Positions 9,262 to 21,087 of a stretch of 64,000 bases of DNA are shown piece by piece. Positions within the stretch are counted from its first letter, which is position 1; the number at the start of each line of letters is the position of its first letter. Position numbers and translations under genes: made by a program. This DNA comes from a phage: sequence record OZ335964.1; one strand, 5' to 3'. Under the pieces are notes generated by a model. That model saw nothing but the letters and a program-made list of their open reading frames with translations, did no database searches and was not told the DNA's origin.

Positions 9262-10848
9262 ATGAAAACTACCAAAGAACTGATGGAAAAATGGTCTCCG
9301 CTGCTGGAAAACGAAAAACTGCCGGAGATTGCAACCGCATCTAAACAGAAACTGGTTGCTAAAATTCTGGAATCTCAGGAAGCAGATTTTGCAGTAGATC
9401 CGATTTATAAAGATGAGAAAGTAGTAGAAGCGTTTGGTGGCTTTATCACCGAAGCAGAAGTTGCTGGCGACCACGGTTACGATGCTTCCAAAATTGCCGC
9501 AGGTCAGACTACTGGTGCAATCACCAACGTAGGTCCGGCTGTTATCGGTATGGTTCGCCGTGCTATTCCTAACCTGATCGCATTTGATATTTGTGGCGTT
9601 CAGCCGATGAGCACCCCGACTAGCCAGATCTTCGCAATCCGTTCCGTATATGGTGGCGATCCTCTGAAAGCTGGTGCTAAAGAAGCATTCCATCCGATGT
9701 ATTCCCCGGATGCGTTCCATAGCTCTCTAGCTGCTAAAGGTGCAACCGCTGCTAACCCGGTAGGTACTGCATTCGCTAAACTGACTATGAATACTGCAAT
9801 CAATGAAGGTGATATTGTTCATCACACCTTTGCAGAAACTGGTATTGCATATCTGCAAAACGTAAACGGTCAGGCTGTCACCCCGTCTAAACAGGGTCAG
9901 GAATCTGACGACGAAGCAGTAATGAAACTGATCGAAGAAGGCAAACTGGCTGAAATCGCTTTCGGTATGGCTACTTCCATCGCGGAACTGCAAGAAGGCT
10001 TTAACGGTTCCCAGAATAACCCGTGGAACGAAATGTCAATGCGTATTGACAAACAGGTTGTTGAAGCGAAATCTCGCCAACTGAAAGCCCGTTATTCTAT
10101 CGAAGTTGCGCAGGATCTGCGTGCTGTACACGGTATGGACGCTGACGCCGAATTGAATGCTATCCTGGCTAACGAAGTTCTGCTGGAAATCAACCGTGAA
10201 ATCGTTGACGTAATCAACTTTACCGCTCAGGTTGGTAAGACTGGCATGACTCAGACCGTTGGTTCTAAAGCTGGTGTATTCGATCTGCAAGATCCGATTG
10301 ATACCCGTGGTGCTCGTTGGGCTGGTGAATCCTTCAAATCTCTGATCTACCAGATTGACAAAGAAGCTGCTGAAATCGCTCGTCAGACTGGTCGCGGTGC
10401 TGGTAACTTCATTATCGCTTCCCGTAACGTTGTAAACATTCTGGCTTCTGCTGATCAGGGTATTAGCGTAGCAATGCAGGGCGCTGCTCGTGGTCTGAAT
10501 ACCGACACCACTAAAGCTGTTTTCGCTGGTGTTCTGGCTGGTAAGTATAAAGTATTCATCGACCAGTATGCTCGTCAGGACTACTTCACCGTAGGTTACA
10601 AAGGCGACAACGAAATGGATGCTGGTATCTACTACGCACCGTATGTTGCTCTGACTCCGCTGCGTGCAACTGATCCGCAGTCTTTCCACCCGGTTCTGGG
10701 CTTCAAGACTCGTTACGGTATCGGTATTAACCCGTTTGCTGATAGCAAGTCTCAGTCTCCGAGTGCTCGTATCACTTCCGGTATGTTGAGCAAAGAAAGC
10801 GTAGGTAAAAACGCTTACTTCCGCCGCGTATGGGTGAAAGGTTGCTAA
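9262..10848 (+). CDS. 23: Major capsid protein (gp23-like)
   Basis: 528-aa ORF; TATAAATA late promoter at 9222; strong terminator downstream; paralogous to the gp24-like ORF at 16443. Confidence 0.93.
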   Translation: MKTTKELMEKWSPLLENEKLPEIATASKQKLVAKILESQEADFAVDPIYKDEKVVEAFGGFITEAEVAGDHGYDASKIAAGQTTGAITNVGPAVIGMVRRAIPNLIAFDICGVQPMSTPTSQIFAIRSVYGGDPLKAGAKEAFHPMYSPDAFHSSLAAKGATAANPVGTAFAKLTMNTAINEGDIVHHTFAETGIAYLQNVNGQAVTPSKQGQESDDEAVMKLIEEGKLAEIAFGMATSIAELQEGFNGSQNNPWNEMSMRIDKQVVEAKSRQLKARYSIEVAQDLRAVHGMDADAELNAILANEVLLEINREIVDVINFTAQVGKTGMTQTVGSKAGVFDLQDPIDTRGARWAGESFKSLIYQIDKEAAEIARQTGRGAGNFIIASRNVVNILASADQGISVAMQGAARGLNTDTTKAVFAGVLAGKYKVFIDQYARQDYFTVGYKGDNEMDAGIYYAPYVALTPLRATDPQSFHPVLGFKTRYGIGINPFADSKSQSPSARITSGMLSKESVGKNAYFRRVWVKGC

Positions 10849-10929
10849 TCCACTTTAATTAATCCGGTCGGGTGCAATGCCCGACTTATATGTAAACTTG
10901 ATAGTGTAGTTACTAAAAGTTTTCTTTAA

Positions 10930-10960
10930 GGGAGATCCGAAAGGGTCTCCCTTTTCTTTT
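10930..10960 (+). terminator. Rho-independent terminator after gene 23
   Basis: GGGAGATCC-GAAA-GGGTCTCCC hairpin followed by TTTTCTTTT. Confidence 0.75.
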
Positions 10961-10976
10961 GTCTAAAATAACACAT

Positions 10977-10984
10977 TATAAATA
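10977..10984 (+). promoter_or_regulatory. T4-type late promoter TATAAATA (island genes)
   Basis: Exact TATAAATA after the gene 23 terminator, about 40 nt upstream of ORF 11022. Confidence 0.6.
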
Positions 10985-11021
10985 AGATTGCAAGCCTATA
11001 TTCTAAGGGGAGCGAAAATAG

Positions 11022-11330
11022 ATGCACACACTTATAAAGACCAAAACTCCCGCCGTGTCTGCACCAATTAGCTGCATTCATAGTACCCATATGACGGTAC
11101 AAATGACAGTTGAAAGTGCTGTACAAGGGCAAAAAGTTGTCGCAGAGGCTGTTTTAGAAGGTTCTCTCGATGGCAAAGGTTGGTTCACTATTTCAGAATT
11201 GAAAGCTGATGGTAATGAATATGCAACTGATGGTGGAGCGTTTGAAACATTATGGTCATTTATTCGGGCTAAGGTAAAATCATTATCCAATGGTTCTACC
11301 GTAAATGTGTATCTTGCGAAACGGGGGTAA
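11022..11330 (+). CDS. Hypothetical protein, first gene of the 23/24 island
   Basis: 102-aa ORF with RBS AGGGGA, about 40 nt downstream of a TATAAATA late promoter. Confidence 0.5.
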   Translation: MHTLIKTKTPAVSAPISCIHSTHMTVQMTVESAVQGQKVVAEAVLEGSLDGKGWFTISELKADGNEYATDGGAFETLWSFIRAKVKSLSNGSTVNVYLAKRG

Positions 11331-11333
11331 TGC

Positions 11334-13052
11334 ATGAAGCTAAATCCAGATGCGGTTATTAATGCTGGTTCTGTTGGCGGTGGCACTGGTTCCGGCGGTG
11401 GTGGTATTCAGATCGGAACTAATGTACCATGCGGAATTAAAAATACTCATCGTTTCGAAAATGAAGCTGAACGAGACGCATATTTTACCACTAAATTTGC
11501 GGAATTGGATCGCCTAAAAACAATTATTGTTTGCGGTGGTAAACTTCAATTGTGGACAGGTGCGACCGCCGCATCGCCTTATGATAATACCAAATGGGTC
11601 GATATGACCTGGGTAATTCAAGGCGAACAGGGTACTACTGGTGAAAAAGGCGAGAATGGACGAGGTATTGCCAGAATTGAAGCGCAAATCTCTGATGATG
11701 ATCGCGAATGGAAACTAGAAATTACCTACTCAGATTCTACCACAGAAACATTAACTTTCCCTGTACCTGATGTGTTAGCTAATGTTGCGCAACGTCTTAC
11801 TGCATTAGAGGTAAGATGGACAGCAACTGGTCAGCCAGTTAATAACCTTGATGCGACTGTAGATCAGGGTCGTTATCCGGTTGGAGATAACACATACGGT
11901 AAGCCACCAATGATGGCAAATAAGGGGTCTGCTGATGTATATGTCATTGAGGGTAGCATTATTCAAGTGGTTCGTTCTATTGACGGTGGCGTGTACTCTC
12001 GTATCCGACACAACGGTCATTGGAGCGAGTGGGTCTCACAAAGTGGCGGTGGAAATGGTAGCGGTGGAGGCTTGACGGGTGATCAAGAAGCTATGTTAAC
12101 TAGCTTAGTTAATCGTCTACCGGAAATTTCACCAAATACACGCGATCTTAACACTCTACAGAAGCAAGGTCGTTTCTGTTATGATGAACGTACTACAAAC
12201 CGCCCTAATGGTACTCAGGTACACGGGTCGGTAGATGTTCATGCTTGCAAAGATCATGTATTACAAATCGCAACCAGTCTCGATGGTGTCATGTCACATC
12301 GCGCACTGGACAAAGCAAACGGTACATGGTCTGATTGGTTGCAGATAAGCGATCATACTGGTGGGGCTACGATTTACGCGTTTCCTAGAGTTTCTAGTGT
12401 ATTCACCACTTCGCAAAACTTGATTGAAGTCACAAAACCGGGCGCTGGATTCTTTTATATTCCGTGGAAATATGTTATTCATGATAACTATGGATGCACT
12501 CCACAGATCCAACACCCAGACCGTCAACAAGATGCGGATCATTGGTGGGTATGCCCGAAATCCGGTAGCTATGACATGGAATTATTGCTTGATATGAGTT
12601 TTATCAAGACACAAGCAACTATTCCGGTTCTTGCTGCTGTAACGGCATGGCACAGGAAAGCAGACGGAAGCGAGACAGAAGCCGCACGTTATCAAATCCC
12701 GTTTGATGTTACCCAGAAAAACCAGAAAACAAGATCCGCTAAACTCCGCATTAATAATTTGCCATCCGGCGAGATGATCCGCTGGCAGGTAAAACTCAGT
12801 GGTTATAGCTGGAGCGAAACTGATAACCCAGACGTAGCATTTGCACCCTTCCGCACTATGCTGATGGTCGATGAAGCAGAATACGACACAGCAAAACGAA
12901 TTGGTGCTCTTGCGTTCAATACATGGGCTAACTTCCATGCGAAAAAAGGTTTTGCTGCCGCTGTAAGTGAGGACGAAAATCAGAAAGCACGTCTTAACGC
13001 CGTTAAATGGGGTGCTGTCATTGAATCCGTCCAAGCTCAGTCACAACCATAA
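11334..13052 (+). CDS. Gly-rich protein with short collagen-like G-X-Y run; possible fibre or decoration protein
   Basis: 572-aa ORF; poly-Gly segments (GSVGGGTGSGGGGIQ, SGGGNGSGGG) and GEQGTTGEKGENGRG; RBS GGGGG. Confidence 0.6.
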   Translation: MKLNPDAVINAGSVGGGTGSGGGGIQIGTNVPCGIKNTHRFENEAERDAYFTTKFAELDRLKTIIVCGGKLQLWTGATAASPYDNTKWVDMTWVIQGEQGTTGEKGENGRGIARIEAQISDDDREWKLEITYSDSTTETLTFPVPDVLANVAQRLTALEVRWTATGQPVNNLDATVDQGRYPVGDNTYGKPPMMANKGSADVYVIEGSIIQVVRSIDGGVYSRIRHNGHWSEWVSQSGGGNGSGGGLTGDQEAMLTSLVNRLPEISPNTRDLNTLQKQGRFCYDERTTNRPNGTQVHGSVDVHACKDHVLQIATSLDGVMSHRALDKANGTWSDWLQISDHTGGATIYAFPRVSSVFTTSQNLIEVTKPGAGFFYIPWKYVIHDNYGCTPQIQHPDRQQDADHWWVCPKSGSYDMELLLDMSFIKTQATIPVLAAVTAWHRKADGSETEAARYQIPFDVTQKNQKTRSAKLRINNLPSGEMIRWQVKLSGYSWSETDNPDVAFAPFRTMLMVDEAEYDTAKRIGALAFNTWANFHAKKGFAAAVSEDENQKARLNAVKWGAVIESVQAQSQP

Positions 13053-13330
13053 TGGGGGTGTATAGGGTTATAGCTGGAGCGAAACTGATAACCCAGACGT
13101 AGCATTTGCACCCTTCCGCACTATGCTGATGGTCGATGAAGCAGAATACGACACAGCAAAACGAATTGGTGCTCTTGCGTTCAATACATGGGCTAACTTC
13201 CATGCGAAAAAAGGTTTTGCTGCCGCTGTAAGTGAGGACGAAAATCAGAAAGCACGTCTTAACGCCGTTAAATGGGGTGCTGTCATTGAATCCGTCCAAG
13301 CTCAGTCACAACCATAATGGGGGTGTATAG
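12801..13330. repeat. Perfect tandem duplication, 2 x 265 bp (12801-13065 and 13066-13330)
   Basis: Second unit repeats the last 84 codons, stop codon and 13-nt 3' flank of the 572-aa gene; identical translations appear twice in the ORF track on both strands. Confidence 0.85.
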
Positions 13331-14253
13331 TGGAACATACAGGAAAAAGGTTGCTAGATCTTAGAAATGGTTTTAATCAGGGTGAAATCACAGAAATCAC
13401 TGGTATGCCAGCTAGTGCTCTCATGGAGGCAGACGTAAGCCGCATATCTAATCAAATCAACACCGAACTAATTGATCCGGTGATTGATTTTGTTATTGCT
13501 TGCGATGAAGTTATCGCAAATGCAGCCGAGGATGCTTTAAACAAAGCCGATAGCGCCGAGAGTATGGCAGAAGTCGCAGACCGAACGGCAGGTCAATCTA
13601 TGAGCAAGGCAACCGATGCTCTAGACAAAGCGACGACCGCAGAATCGGAAGCAGGGCGAGCGCATGATCGCTTAGACAAGTTGAACATTCCACAAATCCC
13701 GAACTTAGACGGGCACACATGGAATTGGCTACCACGTTCTTTCGATAGCGTGTCTATTCAGTTGGGAAGCGGTATCACATTAGTTGATCCAGTGAACGGC
13801 AAGCCTCACATTACATGGACACCAATTAGACAGAACTACGAGACAGGAAGATATTACATCGAGGGTCGTTTTGAAGCCAGATTTAAAGTAATGTTAATGG
13901 ACTGGATTCAACAATCATCCGGTGGTCATATTTTCTATCTAGGTGGTGGTCAAAGTCTGGCATCATTTAACGGACGCGTGTCACTGGTGAATATCTCGAA
14001 TGATATAATGAAGCCGACTAATATACAAGTCAACGCATACACCGCCAAAGATACTCAAGTTATTTTCGGTGCGTGTGCTGATGCGGCAATTTCAACATCA
14101 AGGGAAGTTAAACTAGCTTTCATGGTTGATACTGGAACAGATAAATTTGACCGATATAATGATCCTGTATATGTTGATTTGGTAATGACATTCCAACGCG
14201 ACGGGGAAGGAAATTTCGGATTCGGAAATCTTTTCCCAAGCCTAAATCCTTGA
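13330..14253 (+). CDS. Fibrous protein with N-terminal domain shared with the next ORF; GTG start
   Basis: 307-aa ORF; N-terminus (ALMEADVSRISNQINTELIDPVIDFVIACD) is paralogous to the 621-aa ORF; Ala/Asp-rich helical segment then a globular C-terminal part. Confidence 0.6.
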   Translation: MEHTGKRLLDLRNGFNQGEITEITGMPASALMEADVSRISNQINTELIDPVIDFVIACDEVIANAAEDALNKADSAESMAEVADRTAGQSMSKATDALDKATTAESEAGRAHDRLDKLNIPQIPNLDGHTWNWLPRSFDSVSIQLGSGITLVDPVNGKPHITWTPIRQNYETGRYYIEGRFEARFKVMLMDWIQQSSGGHIFYLGGGQSLASFNGRVSLVNISNDIMKPTNIQVNAYTAKDTQVIFGACADAAISTSREVKLAFMVDTGTDKFDRYNDPVYVDLVMTFQRDGEGNFGFGNLFPSLNP

Positions 14254-14311
14254 TCCTATTTGTCGGGGAGAAATCCCCGACAACGTTTTCTAATATCAAC
14301 GAGGATATGAT

Positions 14312-16177
14312 ATGTTAAGAAACCGTGCAATCAAGTCAACCCCTAATTTCATTCAAGGGGATATGGGAAATATTACCTCAAGAGATAATCATGCATTAAT
14401 GGAGCATGATATTCCAACAATCTCTGACACAATTAACAGGGATCTAATTACACCAGTAATTGATTTTATCAACGAATGCGATAATATTCTACTCGATGGA
14501 ATAGGGACGGTCGCAGATACTGTTGATATTATCGAACGGAAAGCTGATAATGCAACCGAAATTTCTAATTACGCCAGTGAAAAAGCTATCGAGGCATTGG
14601 CAAAATCAAAAGAAAGTTTGACGAAAGCGGAAGAAGCAAACACGGTAGCAAATAGTGTTGCTGGTGATGCGCAAACAGCATTAACTAAAGCTAATGAGGC
14701 TAAAACGCTAACAGACAGTCTTAAAACAAAAGTTGATGGTTATGACACCAGAATCACAGAAATTGATTCTAAGGCAACTACAGCGAAATCTGACGCGTCT
14801 TTAGCAAAAGATAAGGCTGATGCACTGGAAACAACGGTCAATAGCGAGAAAACTAAACTGACAGCATTGACTACTAAGGTCGATACTCTAGAAGGTGATA
14901 TTATCAATGCTGTGGATCTGGCTGAACAAGCAAAGAATAAAGCAGATTCAGTAGAAACACAAGCCATTAATAACACCACAGAGATTACCGCTTTAAAAGG
15001 CCGTGTATCAACTGTAGAGACACAATCAGCAGAAGCCAATAGACTGGCTACCCAAGCCGATAAAAATGCGTCTACGGCGCTCTCAGACGTTTCTACGTTA
15101 TCTTCAAAGGTTGATGATGTTAAGGCTACAGCCGACGCAGCAAGCGCAAGCGTGGCGGGATTAACTCAGGATATCGGAGAAGTGCGGACACTGACAGAAA
15201 CAGCCACGACAAACATCACAACTCTTTCCGGTAAAGTTGATACCATAAAGACAACCGCAGATACAAACAAGACCAATATTGAAGCATTAACCACTCAGGT
15301 TAATGAACACACAACTAAGATCGGAGAGTTGGAAACTGGTGTATCTAACGTTAATGGTGAACTTACCACGGTCAAAGGATCGCTAACCACGGTTCAGGAA
15401 ACCGCAGCTAATGCACTTCAAAAGGCCACCAGCGCAGAAACAAAGGCAGGTAATGTAGAGACACTAATTAATAGTCTTACACCGCGTGTGGACGCGTTAG
15501 AAGGCGATTTAGGTACATTAGAGAGCACTGTTGCTGATTTATCTCCTAAAGTGACAGCAGCAACCGAAAAAGCGACTATGGCATTCAACAAAGCAACTGC
15601 CTTAGAGCAAAAAACGGAATCGATGGAAACAGAAATCGAAGATGTTCGCCTCGATGCTGGGACCGCGATGGCAGAAGCGACACAAGCTAATAGTGAGATC
15701 GCCACGTTAAAAACTAAAGTCGGTGAACTGGAAAGCGATGTTGACACAGCCGATACAATCGCAAATGAAGCATTAGCAGTTGCACAAAGGGCGGATACTA
15801 ATGCAAATACAGCCAATACAAATCTTGCAACGATAACACCAATCGTGGAAAGATTGAATGGTGCATTTGTCGGTATGATTCGAATCAGATACAAGGAAAC
15901 TCGAACTATAACGAAAGCTGGCGGTAACACTCGTCGTAAGTTGATAATCCCACAAGTTCGAAAAGGTGATATGGCATTTGCGGCATTTTTAAACGTACCA
16001 GATAAACGAGATAGTATTCTGTTTAACTGTATGATTCCTGTCGACGGCGAAGTTCACATGGCAATAAAAAATCTGCATACCGCCGCATTAGATTTTAACG
16101 ATTGGGTTCAAATATTGGTATTCCAGACAAGTACGGGTAATCCTATTGTTGACCCAGAAACAAGCCTAACAAACTAA
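14312..16177 (+). CDS. Long coiled-coil fibre-like protein with distinct C-terminal domain
   Basis: 621-aa ORF; about 450 aa of low-complexity T/A/E/K-rich helical sequence; N-terminus (ALMEHDIPTISDTINRDLITPVIDFINECD) paralogous to the 307-aa ORF. Confidence 0.65.
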   Translation: MLRNRAIKSTPNFIQGDMGNITSRDNHALMEHDIPTISDTINRDLITPVIDFINECDNILLDGIGTVADTVDIIERKADNATEISNYASEKAIEALAKSKESLTKAEEANTVANSVAGDAQTALTKANEAKTLTDSLKTKVDGYDTRITEIDSKATTAKSDASLAKDKADALETTVNSEKTKLTALTTKVDTLEGDIINAVDLAEQAKNKADSVETQAINNTTEITALKGRVSTVETQSAEANRLATQADKNASTALSDVSTLSSKVDDVKATADAASASVAGLTQDIGEVRTLTETATTNITTLSGKVDTIKTTADTNKTNIEALTTQVNEHTTKIGELETGVSNVNGELTTVKGSLTTVQETAANALQKATSAETKAGNVETLINSLTPRVDALEGDLGTLESTVADLSPKVTAATEKATMAFNKATALEQKTESMETEIEDVRLDAGTAMAEATQANSEIATLKTKVGELESDVDTADTIANEALAVAQRADTNANTANTNLATITPIVERLNGAFVGMIRIRYKETRTITKAGGNTRRKLIIPQVRKGDMAFAAFLNVPDKRDSILFNCMIPVDGEVHMAIKNLHTAALDFNDWVQILVFQTSTGNPIVDPETSLTN

Positions 16178-16206
16178 TTAATTTCATCAACTATAGGGGA
16201 ATTAAC

Positions 16207-16359
16207 ATGAGCAAGAAAAAAGATAGCTATGTTCAAATTACCAAGAAACAGTATGATGAATTAATGTTAGCGGTGGCCTATGCCATAATGCGATCTGATT
16301 TGGCGATCCAGCAAATCGAAAAGACAAATAAAAGTCTTGAGAATGTAGCAGCAAATTAA
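16207..16359 (+). CDS. Small hypothetical protein (50 aa), below the ORF-track size cutoff
   Basis: ATG with RBS AGGGGA; ends just before the terminator at 16366. Confidence 0.3.
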   Translation: MSKKKDSYVQITKKQYDELMLAVAYAIMRSDLAIQQIEKTNKSLENVAAN

Positions 16360-16365
16360 TTTTTT

Positions 16366-16397
16366 GGGGAATCCTTAACGGGATTCCCCTTTCTTTT
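16366..16397 (+). terminator. Rho-independent terminator closing the 23/24 island
   Basis: GGGGAATCC-TTAAC-GGGATTCCCC hairpin followed by TTTCTTTT. Confidence 0.7.
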
Positions 16398-16404
16398 ATA
16401 AATA
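16397..16404 (+). promoter_or_regulatory. T4-type late promoter TATAAATA (gene 24)
   Basis: Exact TATAAATA overlapping the end of the terminator T-tract, about 40 nt upstream of gene 24. Confidence 0.6.
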
Positions 16405-16442
16405 CAACCATATCCATCAATAAAAATACAGGATTCATAAAC

Positions 16443-17684
16443 ATGGCACAGATTTTCAATGAACTGTTAAAGGAATCGACTTCCTCAGTAGCAAACCAGA
16501 CAGCAAGACCACAATTATTGGCACTTACCCGCGCGGTTAACAACCTGATTTTCTCCGATCTGGTGGCAATTCAGCCAACAAATCAGCCTATTTGTGCATT
16601 ATTCGGACTTCGTTATGTTAACCGTGATGGTCAAATGACTTATCGTACCGCAGGAACGTATGGTGGTGCGGCTGGTAATCGTGATGTTTTTGAAGATTTT
16701 CAGAAAGATAAAGAATATCAGGTCGGTGATCATTTCAAATTTGATAATGTTGTATATGAAGTGATTACAGAAGGTGCAGTAGGACAGGATATTTCTACCG
16801 AAGAAGAAGCGATCTTTAAGGGAGTAGTGTCAAATAAAATTCGTTTCTTTAGTGATTATGCACCTACTGAATATTTCGAAGATGCAAACACTGAAATTTC
16901 TACTACCGATTTTGATTTTGAAAAATGGCAAGTTAATGTCGGATCTCGTAAACTGAAAACAGAATTTACGACCGAATTGATGCAAGATCTGGAAGCAAAC
17001 CAGATGAACTCTGAAAATACCGTTTTGGATCTTCTTGCTACCGTTGCATCCGAAGAAATCAATAAAGATATTATCCAGAAACTGATTACGGTATCAACTC
17101 GTTATAAAGTTAAGAGCATTACACCTGATGGCGTTCTTTCACTGGTTAACGTTCAGGACGCACCAGCACAAGCGCGTGAACTTTATCGCTATGCATGTGA
17201 AATGAGTAATCAAATGCTTCGCACTTCGTCTTTCGGTGGTACTTATGTTCTTGCATCTTCTCGTGTTGTTGGCCTCCTGCAAGCTAGTGGCTGGATGGAA
17301 GAAACTGACAATGCACTAAGTGAAGGTCGTTTACGTTGTGGTTTAGAAGTTTATGCGGACACTGTAACCCCGTTTGATTATATGATCGTTGGTTGTAAGC
17401 ATATGGTCGGTGATATGGAGAGCGTAGGTTCTCTGTTTTACTCCCCATATACAGAATCAGACGGAGCGGGTGCATATAAGAGCATCATCGATCCTAATAG
17501 CTTCAACCATAAAGTAGCGATTATGAATAGATATGCGCTTTCTGTCAACCCATACACAACCAAAGCTGATCAAGAAAACAACCAAGTAATCAAGGGTGAC
17601 GAGTGGGGCAAACTTGCCGGACGTTCAGAAATGTCCTACATGCTGGGTATCGAACTACCACCTCTTGAGATTGACAACGCTTAA
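16443..17684 (+). CDS. 24: Capsid vertex protein (gp24-like)
   Basis: 413-aa ORF, paralog of gp23 as in T4; TATAAATA at 16397. Confidence 0.9.
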   Translation: MAQIFNELLKESTSSVANQTARPQLLALTRAVNNLIFSDLVAIQPTNQPICALFGLRYVNRDGQMTYRTAGTYGGAAGNRDVFEDFQKDKEYQVGDHFKFDNVVYEVITEGAVGQDISTEEEAIFKGVVSNKIRFFSDYAPTEYFEDANTEISTTDFDFEKWQVNVGSRKLKTEFTTELMQDLEANQMNSENTVLDLLATVASEEINKDIIQKLITVSTRYKVKSITPDGVLSLVNVQDAPAQARELYRYACEMSNQMLRTSSFGGTYVLASSRVVGLLQASGWMEETDNALSEGRLRCGLEVYADTVTPFDYMIVGCKHMVGDMESVGSLFYSPYTESDGAGAYKSIIDPNSFNHKVAIMNRYALSVNPYTTKADQENNQVIKGDEWGKLAGRSEMSYMLGIELPPLEIDNA

Positions 17685-18272
17685 CTAAATATCTAACCAA
17701 GACAAATCAGATCCGCCCAAGATTTTTTCGACGGCGGATCTATTTTCTTGATGATATAAGTTAAAACATGGTATCCCATGTCTACGGGCAACATAAACAG
17801 CAATTCGAGTCCCGCCAGAAACAATCCCATTAACTTCTTTCGCCCAAAATAACACACAATCTACAGGATCATCAAGTGTCTCACCTAAGACTTGAGCAAC
17901 ATTTCTAGAAAACAGATTTTGCATGTATAACGGTATAGAACGAGGATTATCATAAACGTGTTCTAATTCATCCATCGCCAGATTTTTTTGTTCTAAGGTT
18001 TGCCATGCAATCACATCATGACCGTTATGCTTGTGGTCATAAAACTTCCAATTTGGAATGAAAATTTTTCTATAATCTGGATCGTAATACTTCATGAAAG
18101 CATTGTCCATACCGTAAGCCCCTCCAGAATGCGCTACAACGCGATTTTCTGACAATACCCTCCCAATGGTACTAGCCATTATCAAAATGTCGCTAGGCGC
18201 TTTTCTAGAGCCGATTAAAGCACATCTACGAAGTGGTTTTACGCCAAATAGATCTTGTAACTGGTCAAACAT
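17685..18272 (-). CDS. DprA/Smf-like (SLOG superfamily) Rossmann-fold protein
   Basis: 195 aa; motifs LIGSRKAP, HSGGAYGMD, LFSRNVAQVLG, SGGTRIAVYVARRHGIPCF resemble DprA signatures; RBS GGAGGAAA. Confidence 0.5.
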   Translation of the reverse strand: MFDQLQDLFGVKPLRRCALIGSRKAPSDILIMASTIGRVLSENRVVAHSGGAYGMDNAFMKYYDPDYRKIFIPNWKFYDHKHNGHDVIAWQTLEQKNLAMDELEHVYDNPRSIPLYMQNLFSRNVAQVLGETLDDPVDCVLFWAKEVNGIVSGGTRIAVYVARRHGIPCFNLYHQENRSAVEKILGGSDLSWLDI

Positions 18273-19836: not shown

Positions 19837-21072
19837 TTAAGCAGGAGGCGTTTCACGAATGCGTAGCATCTTCTCTAAGATCTCTCGATCCAGTCGGTGT
19901 AATTCGCTTGCGTTATACATAAATCCGTTTCGTGATTCCATACAGATGCAATCACCAAATTTTTCTTCCGCTGCCGCGATAGTCTCGATATCGTGTGCGT
20001 ATCGGCTATCTTCATAGACAGCACGATCCCTCCAGTCTTGCCCTTTCTCGTTGAACTTCACGATCTCATCAAATACCCACCATCCAATGTAGATAAATGA
20101 CGTATTACGCCACGGAATCGGGTGTACATAACGTAACATACTATGAAGAGATTCAACCACTTCTACGGCGCAATGAGAGCTTCCTTTGTCCTCGATCAGT
20201 ACATCGTTTTTATTCAGCGTCTGATAGAGTTCAGCAACACACCAGAAATTAGCGGTGTCATCGGTGGTTGCGGCGTCTTTGTGTAGGTATCCATTAGGCA
20301 TAATAACGAATCCTTCAATGGCTTCTCCTTCCTCACTACCGATCAGTGTAGGTGCGGACTGCCCTTCACGTTGCAAATACCATTTTTGCTTAACTTTAAG
20401 CGGTGGCATAGATGCAGGAACATTACCAACGGTAACTCCCATAACACGATAAGGTAGTGTGAGTTCTTTACCCAATACAACCGTTTTTTCTAGCGGGAGA
20501 TCTTCAACTACAGACAAAGCGATAGACACCAGATCAATTGCTGCGGAGTCCATCGACGCTTCCGATTCGCCCCATACTTTAACCTTGTATTCGCCGTTCT
20601 TGTCATCGGTAAAGTTAGGGATAATAAGCGTATCTGTATTATTGCCTAAGTCTACGCCATTGTGCTCCCATTTGAAATTAAGGGTATAGTTATTTGCGGG
20701 AGATTGCCCGGTGGAGTATGCTACCGTTGCCACTATTCCGGTTTGTTCGTCATGCGGAACGTATTGAGAATGTTTATCAAGTTTGACAACCAATTCCGCT
20801 TCGGTCATCTTGAATACGTTAGATTCTACTACTTCTTGTGTGTCTGTGTCGGTTACTGTAACTTTATAGTTGCCAGCATTTGCAGACGTTGCACCAGTTA
20901 TTTTAATTGTTTTTGTTGTTTCCTGCAACGGCTGATCGTTATGCGACCATGCATATGTTACGTTTTGTGGTACTGGATCGCTGCCAACTGCTTCAATAGT
21001 AGCTGAAACGTTGAAAGTATCACCAGCCAGGAAACAACGACGGTTTGATTTTACTGTAACTGTGAATGCCAT
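19837..21072 (-). CDS. hoc: Hoc-like Ig-domain capsid decoration protein (shorter paralog)
   Basis: Ig-like repeats plus C-terminal YVHPIPWRNTSF...ESRNGF module shared with the upstream paralog; start set at MAFTVT (RBS GGAG) after the upstream terminator. Confidence 0.7.
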   Translation of the reverse strand: MAFTVTVKSNRRCFLAGDTFNVSATIEAVGSDPVPQNVTYAWSHNDQPLQETTKTIKITGATSANAGNYKVTVTDTDTQEVVESNVFKMTEAELVVKLDKHSQYVPHDEQTGIVATVAYSTGQSPANNYTLNFKWEHNGVDLGNNTDTLIIPNFTDDKNGEYKVKVWGESEASMDSAAIDLVSIALSVVEDLPLEKTVVLGKELTLPYRVMGVTVGNVPASMPPLKVKQKWYLQREGQSAPTLIGSEEGEAIEGFVIMPNGYLHKDAATTDDTANFWCVAELYQTLNKNDVLIEDKGSSHCAVEVVESLHSMLRYVHPIPWRNTSFIYIGWWVFDEIVKFNEKGQDWRDRAVYEDSRYAHDIETIAAAEEKFGDCICMESRNGFMYNASELHRLDREILEKMLRIRETPPA

Positions 21073-21087
21073 AATAGCCCACTCCAT

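Follow-up and report, generated by a model that had tools for sequence, protein, structure and literature searches.

Fibres and spikes that resemble parts of the proteins described here are known from several particles. They include the distal part of R-type pyocin and P2-like tail fibres (PA0620; PDB 6cl6, 6cu2, 6cxb), the vertex spike P5 of phage PRD1, the BclA hairs of the Bacillus exosporium, C1q, T4 fibritin (Wac), T7 gp17, Hoc and the head fibres of other phages, and the neighbouring adhesins of phages CBA120 and G7C. The locus compared with them lies at positions 10849-16442 of a 64,000-nucleotide (nt) stretch of phage DNA (record OZ335964.1, hereafter the window), between capsid genes 23 and 24. 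It constitutes one late operon for three fibre-shaped proteins of 572, 307 and 621 amino acids (aa) and a small partner of 102 aa, which are probably cell-surface binders. The reading favoured here, at a probability of roughly 55%, is that this module encodes dispensable accessory fibres borne by the virion, with the head as the favoured site.

Each of the described systems matches the module in part. The 572-aa protein carries knobs like those of the pyocin fibre, but its tip is a predicted C1q/TNF jelly-roll and not the pyocin foot. Its N-terminal half is unrelated and bears a collagen-like run, and its gene belongs to a head operon and has no neighbour that encodes a tail-fibre assembly chaperone. 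PRD1 P5, BclA and C1q place a C1q/TNF head on a collagen stalk, whereas the collagen-like run of the 572-aa protein has five triplets, knobs are intercalated, the sequences are not related, and attachment to a vertex is hypothetical. Like fibritin and T7 gp17, the 307- and 621-aa proteins join a docking domain at the N-terminus to a predicted trimeric, alpha-helical coiled coil and a small C-terminal domain. Unlike fibritin, they lack a foldon and have an anchor dissimilar to the N-terminus of Wac from Shigella phage JK32; a separate wac gene is found elsewhere in the phage.

The module also recalls Hoc and head fibres (phi29 gp8.5, the filaments of phages 7-7-1 and phiCbK) in being dispensable, late, capsid-adjacent and a proposed source of weak surface adherence. 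Unlike Hoc, its proteins have neither immunoglobulin (Ig) nor capsid-binding domains and are predicted trimeric fibres instead of a monomer, and their placement on the head is hypothetical. As in CBA120 (TSP1-4) and G7C (gp63.1/gp66), several adhesin genes are neighbours, and two of the proteins combine a common docking part with exchangeable distal parts, although the module tips are apparently non-enzymatic and the genomic location is different. The knobs, C1q/TNF heads and coiled-coil fibres are thus known domain types, while the anchor, the 102-aa partner and the 621-aa tip are orphans. No fibre module within the head operon of T4-like phages is described in the literature searched.

A late operon between genes 23 and 24

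The interval is abutted directly by gp23 at its 5' edge (9262-10848; Pfam Gp23, E 1.6e-118) and by gp24 at its 3' edge (16443-17684; Pfam Gp23, E 1.2e-88). Its region is 99.2% identical to that of JK32, a member of the genus Krischvirus, the RB49-like relatives of T4. An initial annotation made from the window's sequence had stated that the corresponding gap in T4 holds just one homing-endonuclease gene, and segD is indeed the sole occupant upstream of T4 gene 24. It had listed four open reading frames (ORFs) of 102, 572, 307 and 621 aa; all are present on the + strand, but a fifth, of 50 aa, had been overlooked. The features of the operon are as follows.

10928-10953, + strand: terminator-like hairpin 3' of gp23, 11-bp stem and T-rich tail, conserved in the annotation of G2248 and G37-3
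10977-10984, + strand: T4-type late promoter motif TATAAATA, the sole exact copy for the five-ORF set
11022-11330, + strand: 102-aa small partner protein (phrog_16217, E 3e-20)
11334-13052, + strand: 572-aa predicted fibre protein
13330-14253, + strand: 307-aa predicted short fibre, GTG start, Alanine_zipper matches
14260-14283, + strand: GC-rich hairpin, T tail weak, situated 3' of the 307 gene and 5' of the 621 gene, at the edge of the cassette slot
14312-16177, + strand: 621-aa predicted long fibre, in a variable cassette slot
16207-16359, + strand: 50-aa ORF, equivalent to RB49ORF162w (phrog_16600, E 9e-19)
16366-16389, + strand: terminator-like hairpin closing the operon; the late promoter of gp24 comes next (16397-16404)

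The four ORFs had been described as late-promoter-driven. They do not each have a late promoter; a single exact copy of the motif, at 10977, serves the whole set. Its distance to the ATG of the 102-aa ORF is 45 nt, comparable with 40 nt for gp23 and 46 nt for gp24, and the spacing between module genes is 3-58 nt when a 265-nt duplication described below is left out. The view that terminators bound the island is borne out by the hairpins at both ends, to which the third, weaker one is added. These predicted motifs have the layout of a T4-type late transcription unit, with a promoter about 40-50 nt 5' of the start codon and a terminator at the end. Since the ORFs are tightly packed behind the sole late promoter and flanked by terminators, they appear from their sequence to form a single operon.

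Searches of Pfam, PHROGs, NCBIfam, PADLOC and PDB sequences gave no informative family for the module ORFs, only coiled-coil bias and PHROGs of unknown function. The five module proteins show no match to Hoc or Ig domains in Pfam or PHROG. Scans of the same two collections detected no gp10-like or known adaptor domain, and no search for such domains was made beyond those scans. Homology to known non-structural families was one finding on which the initial annotation would have abandoned a fibre role; no database match assigns any module protein to such a family.

Predicted fibres and their docking parts

The 572-aa protein combines several recognizable parts, which are located in the window as follows.

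11622-11666, + strand: collagen-like G-X-Y run GEQGTTGEKGENGRG, five triplets (aa 97-111)
11838-12350, + strand: two tandem knobs similar to those of R-type pyocin tail fibres (knob 1 at about aa 169-237, knob 2 at about aa 271-339)
12381-12878, + strand: predicted C1q/TNF-like jelly-roll head (about aa 350-515, borders approximate)
12801-13065 and 13066-13330, + strand: perfect 2 x 265-nt tandem duplication of the 572-gene 3' end and spacer, the second copy being non-functional debris

A conserved N-terminal region with a Gly linker (aa 1-96) precedes the G-X-Y run, a small beta domain (aa 112-143) follows it, and a C-terminal extension follows the head. The protein had been described as Gly-rich with a collagen-like run; the run is present, but Gly accounts for just 9.4% of the residues. 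Across 20 homologs G97, G100, G103 and G109 are invariant and G106 nearly so, five in-register glycines being too few on their own for calling a collagen domain. A monomer model based on 20 homologs has a mean predicted local distance difference test score (pLDDT) of 61.6, rising to 80-90 in the C-terminal domain. It depicts a disordered stretch of 111 residues at the N-terminus, then the small beta domain, a pair of similar domains (about 70 residues each) split by short helices, and a C-terminal beta domain. The two middle domains have the fold and motif of the approximately 70-aa pyocin and phage knob, repeated internally. The C-terminal domain, whose borders were inferred from the pLDDT and secondary-structure profile, is modelled as a ten-strand jelly-roll that superimposes on C1q/TNF ligands. 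Most of the named viral structural neighbours of the fibre folds are tail fibre, minor tail or BppU proteins.

From these parts a fibre can be envisaged. The short collagen-like segment and the C1q/TNF-type head would hold three copies of the 572-aa protein together, and the resulting fibre would have two pyocin-like knobs and bind by its distal head. The conserved first 96 residues, with their MKLNPxAVI peptide and flexible Gly linker, may fix this fibre to the particle, probably via the 102-aa protein. A search for this N-terminal domain elsewhere returned only the same phages, and no paralogy was found between the 572- and 307-aa proteins.

Through the duplication the final 84 codons of the 572 gene occur twice, a duplicate ORF of 64 codons remains at 13123-13317, and the 307 gene starts 277 nt instead of 12 nt after the 572 gene. 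JK32 holds a single copy of the unit, and the duplication is either a very recent event or an assembly artefact.

The 102-aa family comprises 43 clusters among 5.8e9 proteins, with sizes of about 95-112 aa, and has no relative in Pfam or among PDB sequences. Its members are found in several settings. Aeromonas phages 31 and 44RR2.8t likewise have a homolog in the gp23-gp24 gap, where a 288-aa fibre-like protein comes next. In Orisa-like myoviruses of Pseudomonas the homolog is placed 3' of the lysis genes, ahead of an SGNH esterase, small proteins and collagen-like proteins. Two more distant homologs adjoin terminase genes, and one of these then precedes a protein that reads, by its sequence, as deacetylase-like. 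The protein encoded right after a 102-aa homolog starts with a short peptide of similar sequence (MKLNPDAVI, MILNPKAVL, MELGVGAF, MEVGKGAF or MDTGKGAF) and a Gly/Ser linker. Peptide and small protein are possibly a tag-and-socket pair that links the fibre to its partner, making the 102-aa protein a candidate adaptor or socket for the neighbouring 572-aa fibre.

In the Pseudomonas phage version of the set, the product of the third or fourth gene has what looks like a Sec signal peptide (Orisa01, 10074-10994; L011, 8782-10059; L015, 8012-9010), and the protein of Orisa01 also bears collagen-like G-X-Y repeats. Signal peptides are odd for a virion protein, which hints that this gene set may be not purely structural in those phages.

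The 307- and 621-aa proteins would form a second type of fibre. They had been proposed to share a paralogous N-terminus and to differ at the C-terminus, in agreement with a BLASTP alignment of 37% identity over 116 aa (E 3e-14) and with their unrelated C-terminal domains. In the 307-aa protein (mean pLDDT of the monomer model 72.5), the anchor at aa 15-60 is followed by an Ala-zipper coiled coil (about aa 61-118), a beta-sandwich tip (about aa 136-295) and a conserved FGFGxLFPxLNP tail. The 621-aa protein joins its anchor (aa 13-60) to a heptad coiled coil of about 440 residues (about aa 62-510), where the heptad periodicity is strong between about aa 100 and aa 500, and has an orphan domain of about 105 aa at its C-terminus. 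With a rise of 0.148 nm per residue, the longer coil would measure about 65 nm; the shorter one would measure roughly 10 nm. Both proteins would be trimeric coiled-coil fibres that dock by the common 45-residue N-terminal module and present different tips.

The 307 family comprises 16 clusters among 5.8 billion proteins. Its conservation is highest at aa 15-60 (0.81, versus 0.62-0.73 elsewhere), as that of the 572 family is at aa 1-96 (0.72 versus 0.44-0.63). Maximal conservation of N-terminal parts is what docking on a conserved partner would lead one to expect. The anchor was not found outside this module type, either by tblastn in 50,697 phage records or by HMMER in 1.84 billion representatives. 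Relatives mount proteins of 230, 454 and 982 aa on the same anchor with coils of differing length, an arrangement that upholds the proposal of a conserved N-terminal anchor with swapped distal parts. The 621-aa C-terminal domain was searched for elsewhere and nothing was obtained outside the same phages.

Sequence matches of the 621-aa coil call for caution. The protein scores 48.5 bits against PF00261 (tropomyosin; cut-off 38.6), but the same region is matched by 26 other, unrelated coiled-coil families. These matches, SMC, Rad50, Lpp Ala-zipper, crescentin and JetC among them, point to heptad bias; readings as tropomyosin, SMC or JetC were dropped on that ground, and the JK32 annotation "tropomyosin" is misleading and best avoided. 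PADLOC returned only coiled-coil matches of this protein to JetC, LmuB and DruC, and no anti-phage defence match outside the coils. Relatedness of the anchor to fibritin was also rejected: BLASTP against JK32 Wac aligns the coil only (E 6e-5), the N-terminus is unmatched and the foldon motif is absent. JK32 fibritin itself (15184-16953, 589 aa) has a foldon-like motif, GYHYLRKHGEWVQV, and then about 120 further residues that make up an extra C-terminal domain; the Krischvirus whisker tip may therefore also bear a binding domain.

Distribution, deletion scars and neighbouring genes

Among the 50,697 phage records the 572-aa gene occurs in six, all of them Krischvirus (JK32, G2248, Brandy, UPWr_E1, SSG23 and SFHK24), out of about 60 listed for the genus. 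The 50-aa ORF, in contrast to the rest, is retained by all Krischvirus, including those without the module. It is alone in the gap of RB49, G37-3, G2494 and Makalu_001, where codons for aa 397-447 of the 572-aa protein and aa 260-307 of the 307-aa protein survive as frame-shifted relics. The deletion junctions are conserved, on the left at the ATG of the 102-aa ORF and on the right at the 50-aa ORF, and around the deletions SSG23 and Makalu_001 run collinearly at 94-97% identity. Because of these relics, the conserved junctions and the collinear background, the module is ancestral in Krischvirus and the RB49 type a deletion derivative. The island was initially called inserted, which is accurate relative to T4; within the genus its core is ancestral and has been lost elsewhere. 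By this comparison the module is an old optional set, since deleted from most of the sequenced relatives. The RB49 relics of the 572- and 307-aa genes are recorded at L003, 6777-7080, and in some databases such relics are annotated as genes (PHROG 20809, G2494_00165, EcMakalu001_160).

At the same site, metagenomic T4-like contigs carry versions that have diverged to 38-57% identity. The order and sizes of the module genes, in aa, are as follows.

95-288: Aeromonas phage 31
102-570-309: another relative
102-572-307-621: the window and JK32
100-561-304-43: metagenomic contig L010
102-569-299-230-52: metagenomic contig L013
98-560-454-982-382: metagenomic contig L006

Only the slot 3' of the 307-type gene varies, containing nothing (as in G2248), a gene for 230 or 621 aa, or two for 982 and 382 aa. 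It is a cassette position at which fibres of different length and tip are exchanged.

A further gene varies together with the module. Two tandem Hoc paralogs are encoded downstream.

19837-21075, - strand: Hoc paralog of about 412 aa
21122-23665, - strand: Hoc paralog of 847 aa with about eight Ig-like domains

The two have only the C-terminal capsid-binding domain in common (45% identity over 89 aa). Full-length 847-aa Hoc is found in exactly the six module-bearing records and in no other Krischvirus, as well as in contigs L010 and L013. RB49 (AY343333, L018 3464-3571) retains its last 36 codons, annotated RB49p168.2. The long Hoc of the window is only 77% identical to that of JK32, compared with 99% for the module, which indicates a mosaic genome. 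Between SSG23 and Makalu_001, the approximately 5 kb separating the two loci are 93.8% identical, versus 95.6% and 97.2% in the flanks.

Two other genes of the window are worth recording. The large terminase ORF (1-2817, + strand) encodes 938 aa, with a Terminase_6N match from residue 496 and LAGLIDADG_3 at 365-422, and is represented in JK32 by two overlapping coding sequences. The large terminase of T4 has about 610 aa; the greater length and the positions of these matches suggest an intein or a homing-endonuclease insertion. Abutting gp24, a 195-aa protein (17685-18272, - strand) shows a weak DprA (DNA_processg_A) match and is conserved in RB49 (ORF164c) and in SSG23, where it is annotated as DprA-like.

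Proposed placement of the fibres and their significance

As accessory fibres of the virion, the module proteins would add reversible contacts with surface molecules of the host or the environment, contributing to adsorption, host range or retention. The favoured attachment site would be the head or its vertices. That the fibres are non-essential would explain why most relatives have deleted them. Head over tail association is favoured, but only indirectly, by the position in the capsid operon, by the co-distributed Hoc paralog and by the synteny in Aeromonas phages. Two genera of T4-like phages have the module inside their block of head genes, and the proximity of distant 102-aa homologs to terminase genes is counted for the head as well. 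The loss of three capsid-adjacent late accessory pieces in the RB49 lineage is suggestive of a shared role at the capsid surface.

Several points weigh against virion-borne head fibres. The presence of the module proteins in the virion is inferred, as are their expression, trimer state, attachment site and ligands; what the analysis shows is the gene structure, the lone promoter motif, the paralogy, the predicted folds, the distribution and the deletion scars. The structural models are monomeric and of moderate confidence (72.5 and 61.6), and the N-terminal regions, key for attachment, are poorly predicted. Co-distribution of module and long Hoc may be mere linkage, as the loci are about 5 kb apart and could form one recombination block. 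The Pseudomonas setting of the 102-aa homolog, with its post-lysis position, enzymes and signal-peptide collagen-like proteins, is unlike a head module. The electron microscopy description of JK32 reports ordinary T4-like morphology and does not mention head fibres. The literature searched contains no proteomic or cryo-electron microscopy study of a module-bearing Krischvirus. Publications on Krischvirus capsids, JK32, UPWr_E1, SSG23, the virion proteomes of RB49 and 44RR2.8t, and T4-like head fibres held nothing touching these genes.

The neck, collar or baseplate could instead carry the fibres, which would then serve as auxiliary tail or whisker-like fibres, and their position in the head operon would be incidental. 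The closest structural relatives are all tail fibre or receptor-binding proteins (the R-pyocin fibre, AP22 gp53, PSA gp15, lactococcal receptor-binding proteins and a cyanophage short tail fibre). The 621-aa protein is fibritin-like in design, with an N-terminal anchor, a long segmented coiled coil and a small C-terminal domain, and its coil has weak PHROG matches to tail-fibre families. This placement is considered unlikely. It is rather improbable that the products are late proteins that never join the particle, whether released at lysis to bind debris, matrix and neighbouring cells or acting inside the cell during assembly. The viability of phages that have lost the module is compatible with this, and in Pseudomonas phages the small protein heads a post-lysis set whose SGNH esterase and signal-peptide collagen-like proteins could not enter particles assembled in the cytoplasm. 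The module proteins of the window, however, have no signal peptides as judged from their sequence, their late promoter and its spacing are those of capsid genes, and docking N-termini with exchangeable distal parts are a hallmark of particle-mounted fibres.

The history of the locus bears on a different proposal, that the whole island is a mobile cassette recently inserted by horizontal transfer into the 23/24 gap. The absence of the module from T4 and RB49 and its rarity among Krischvirus would agree with such an event, as would the 621 gene, which in the phage records is confined to JK32 besides the window, has a lower GC content (0.38-0.40 versus 0.45-0.47) and is preceded by a hairpin. But the frame-shifted relics in place and the conserved junctions are deletion scars that refute recent insertion for the 102/572/307 core, and the divergent same-site versions and the Aeromonas synteny of the 102-aa gene speak against it as well. 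The ORF list, a repeat search and Pfam revealed no integrase, homing endonuclease or flanking repeats in the module. A recent arrival of the entire island is therefore very hard to credit, while the 621 cassette alone may be a later acquisition.

Virion-borne accessory fibres, preferably on the head, hence remain the favoured reading. A bolder and doubtful version holds that wild Krischvirus particles are 'hairy'. Trimers of the 572-, 307- and 621-aa proteins would stand on the capsid, possibly at the pentameric gp24 vertices, held by their flexible N-terminal tails and the 102-aa adaptor, much as trimeric spikes are set on the pentons of adenovirus and PRD1, and would act jointly with the eight-Ig long Hoc as a capsid-borne adhesion system. 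RB49 and most isolates would have lost all of it by three separate deletions. If true, T4-like phages would have head fibres of a new class, with a docking module that is new as well and a tag-and-socket principle of attachment common to unrelated Pseudomonas phages.

Although T4-like phages are the best-studied tailed viruses, the module has so far been annotated only as 'hypothetical' or, misleadingly, 'tropomyosin-like'. RB49, the reference of the genus, has lost both the module and the second Hoc, and its known particle surface may under-represent that of natural phages. If the proteins are virion fibres, they would be extra determinants of host range or retention in phages in therapeutic use (SSG23, UPWr_E1, JK32), and the slot after the 307-type gene would offer a natural cassette site for engineering. 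The partners of the 45-residue anchor and of the 102-aa protein could define a new attachment principle.

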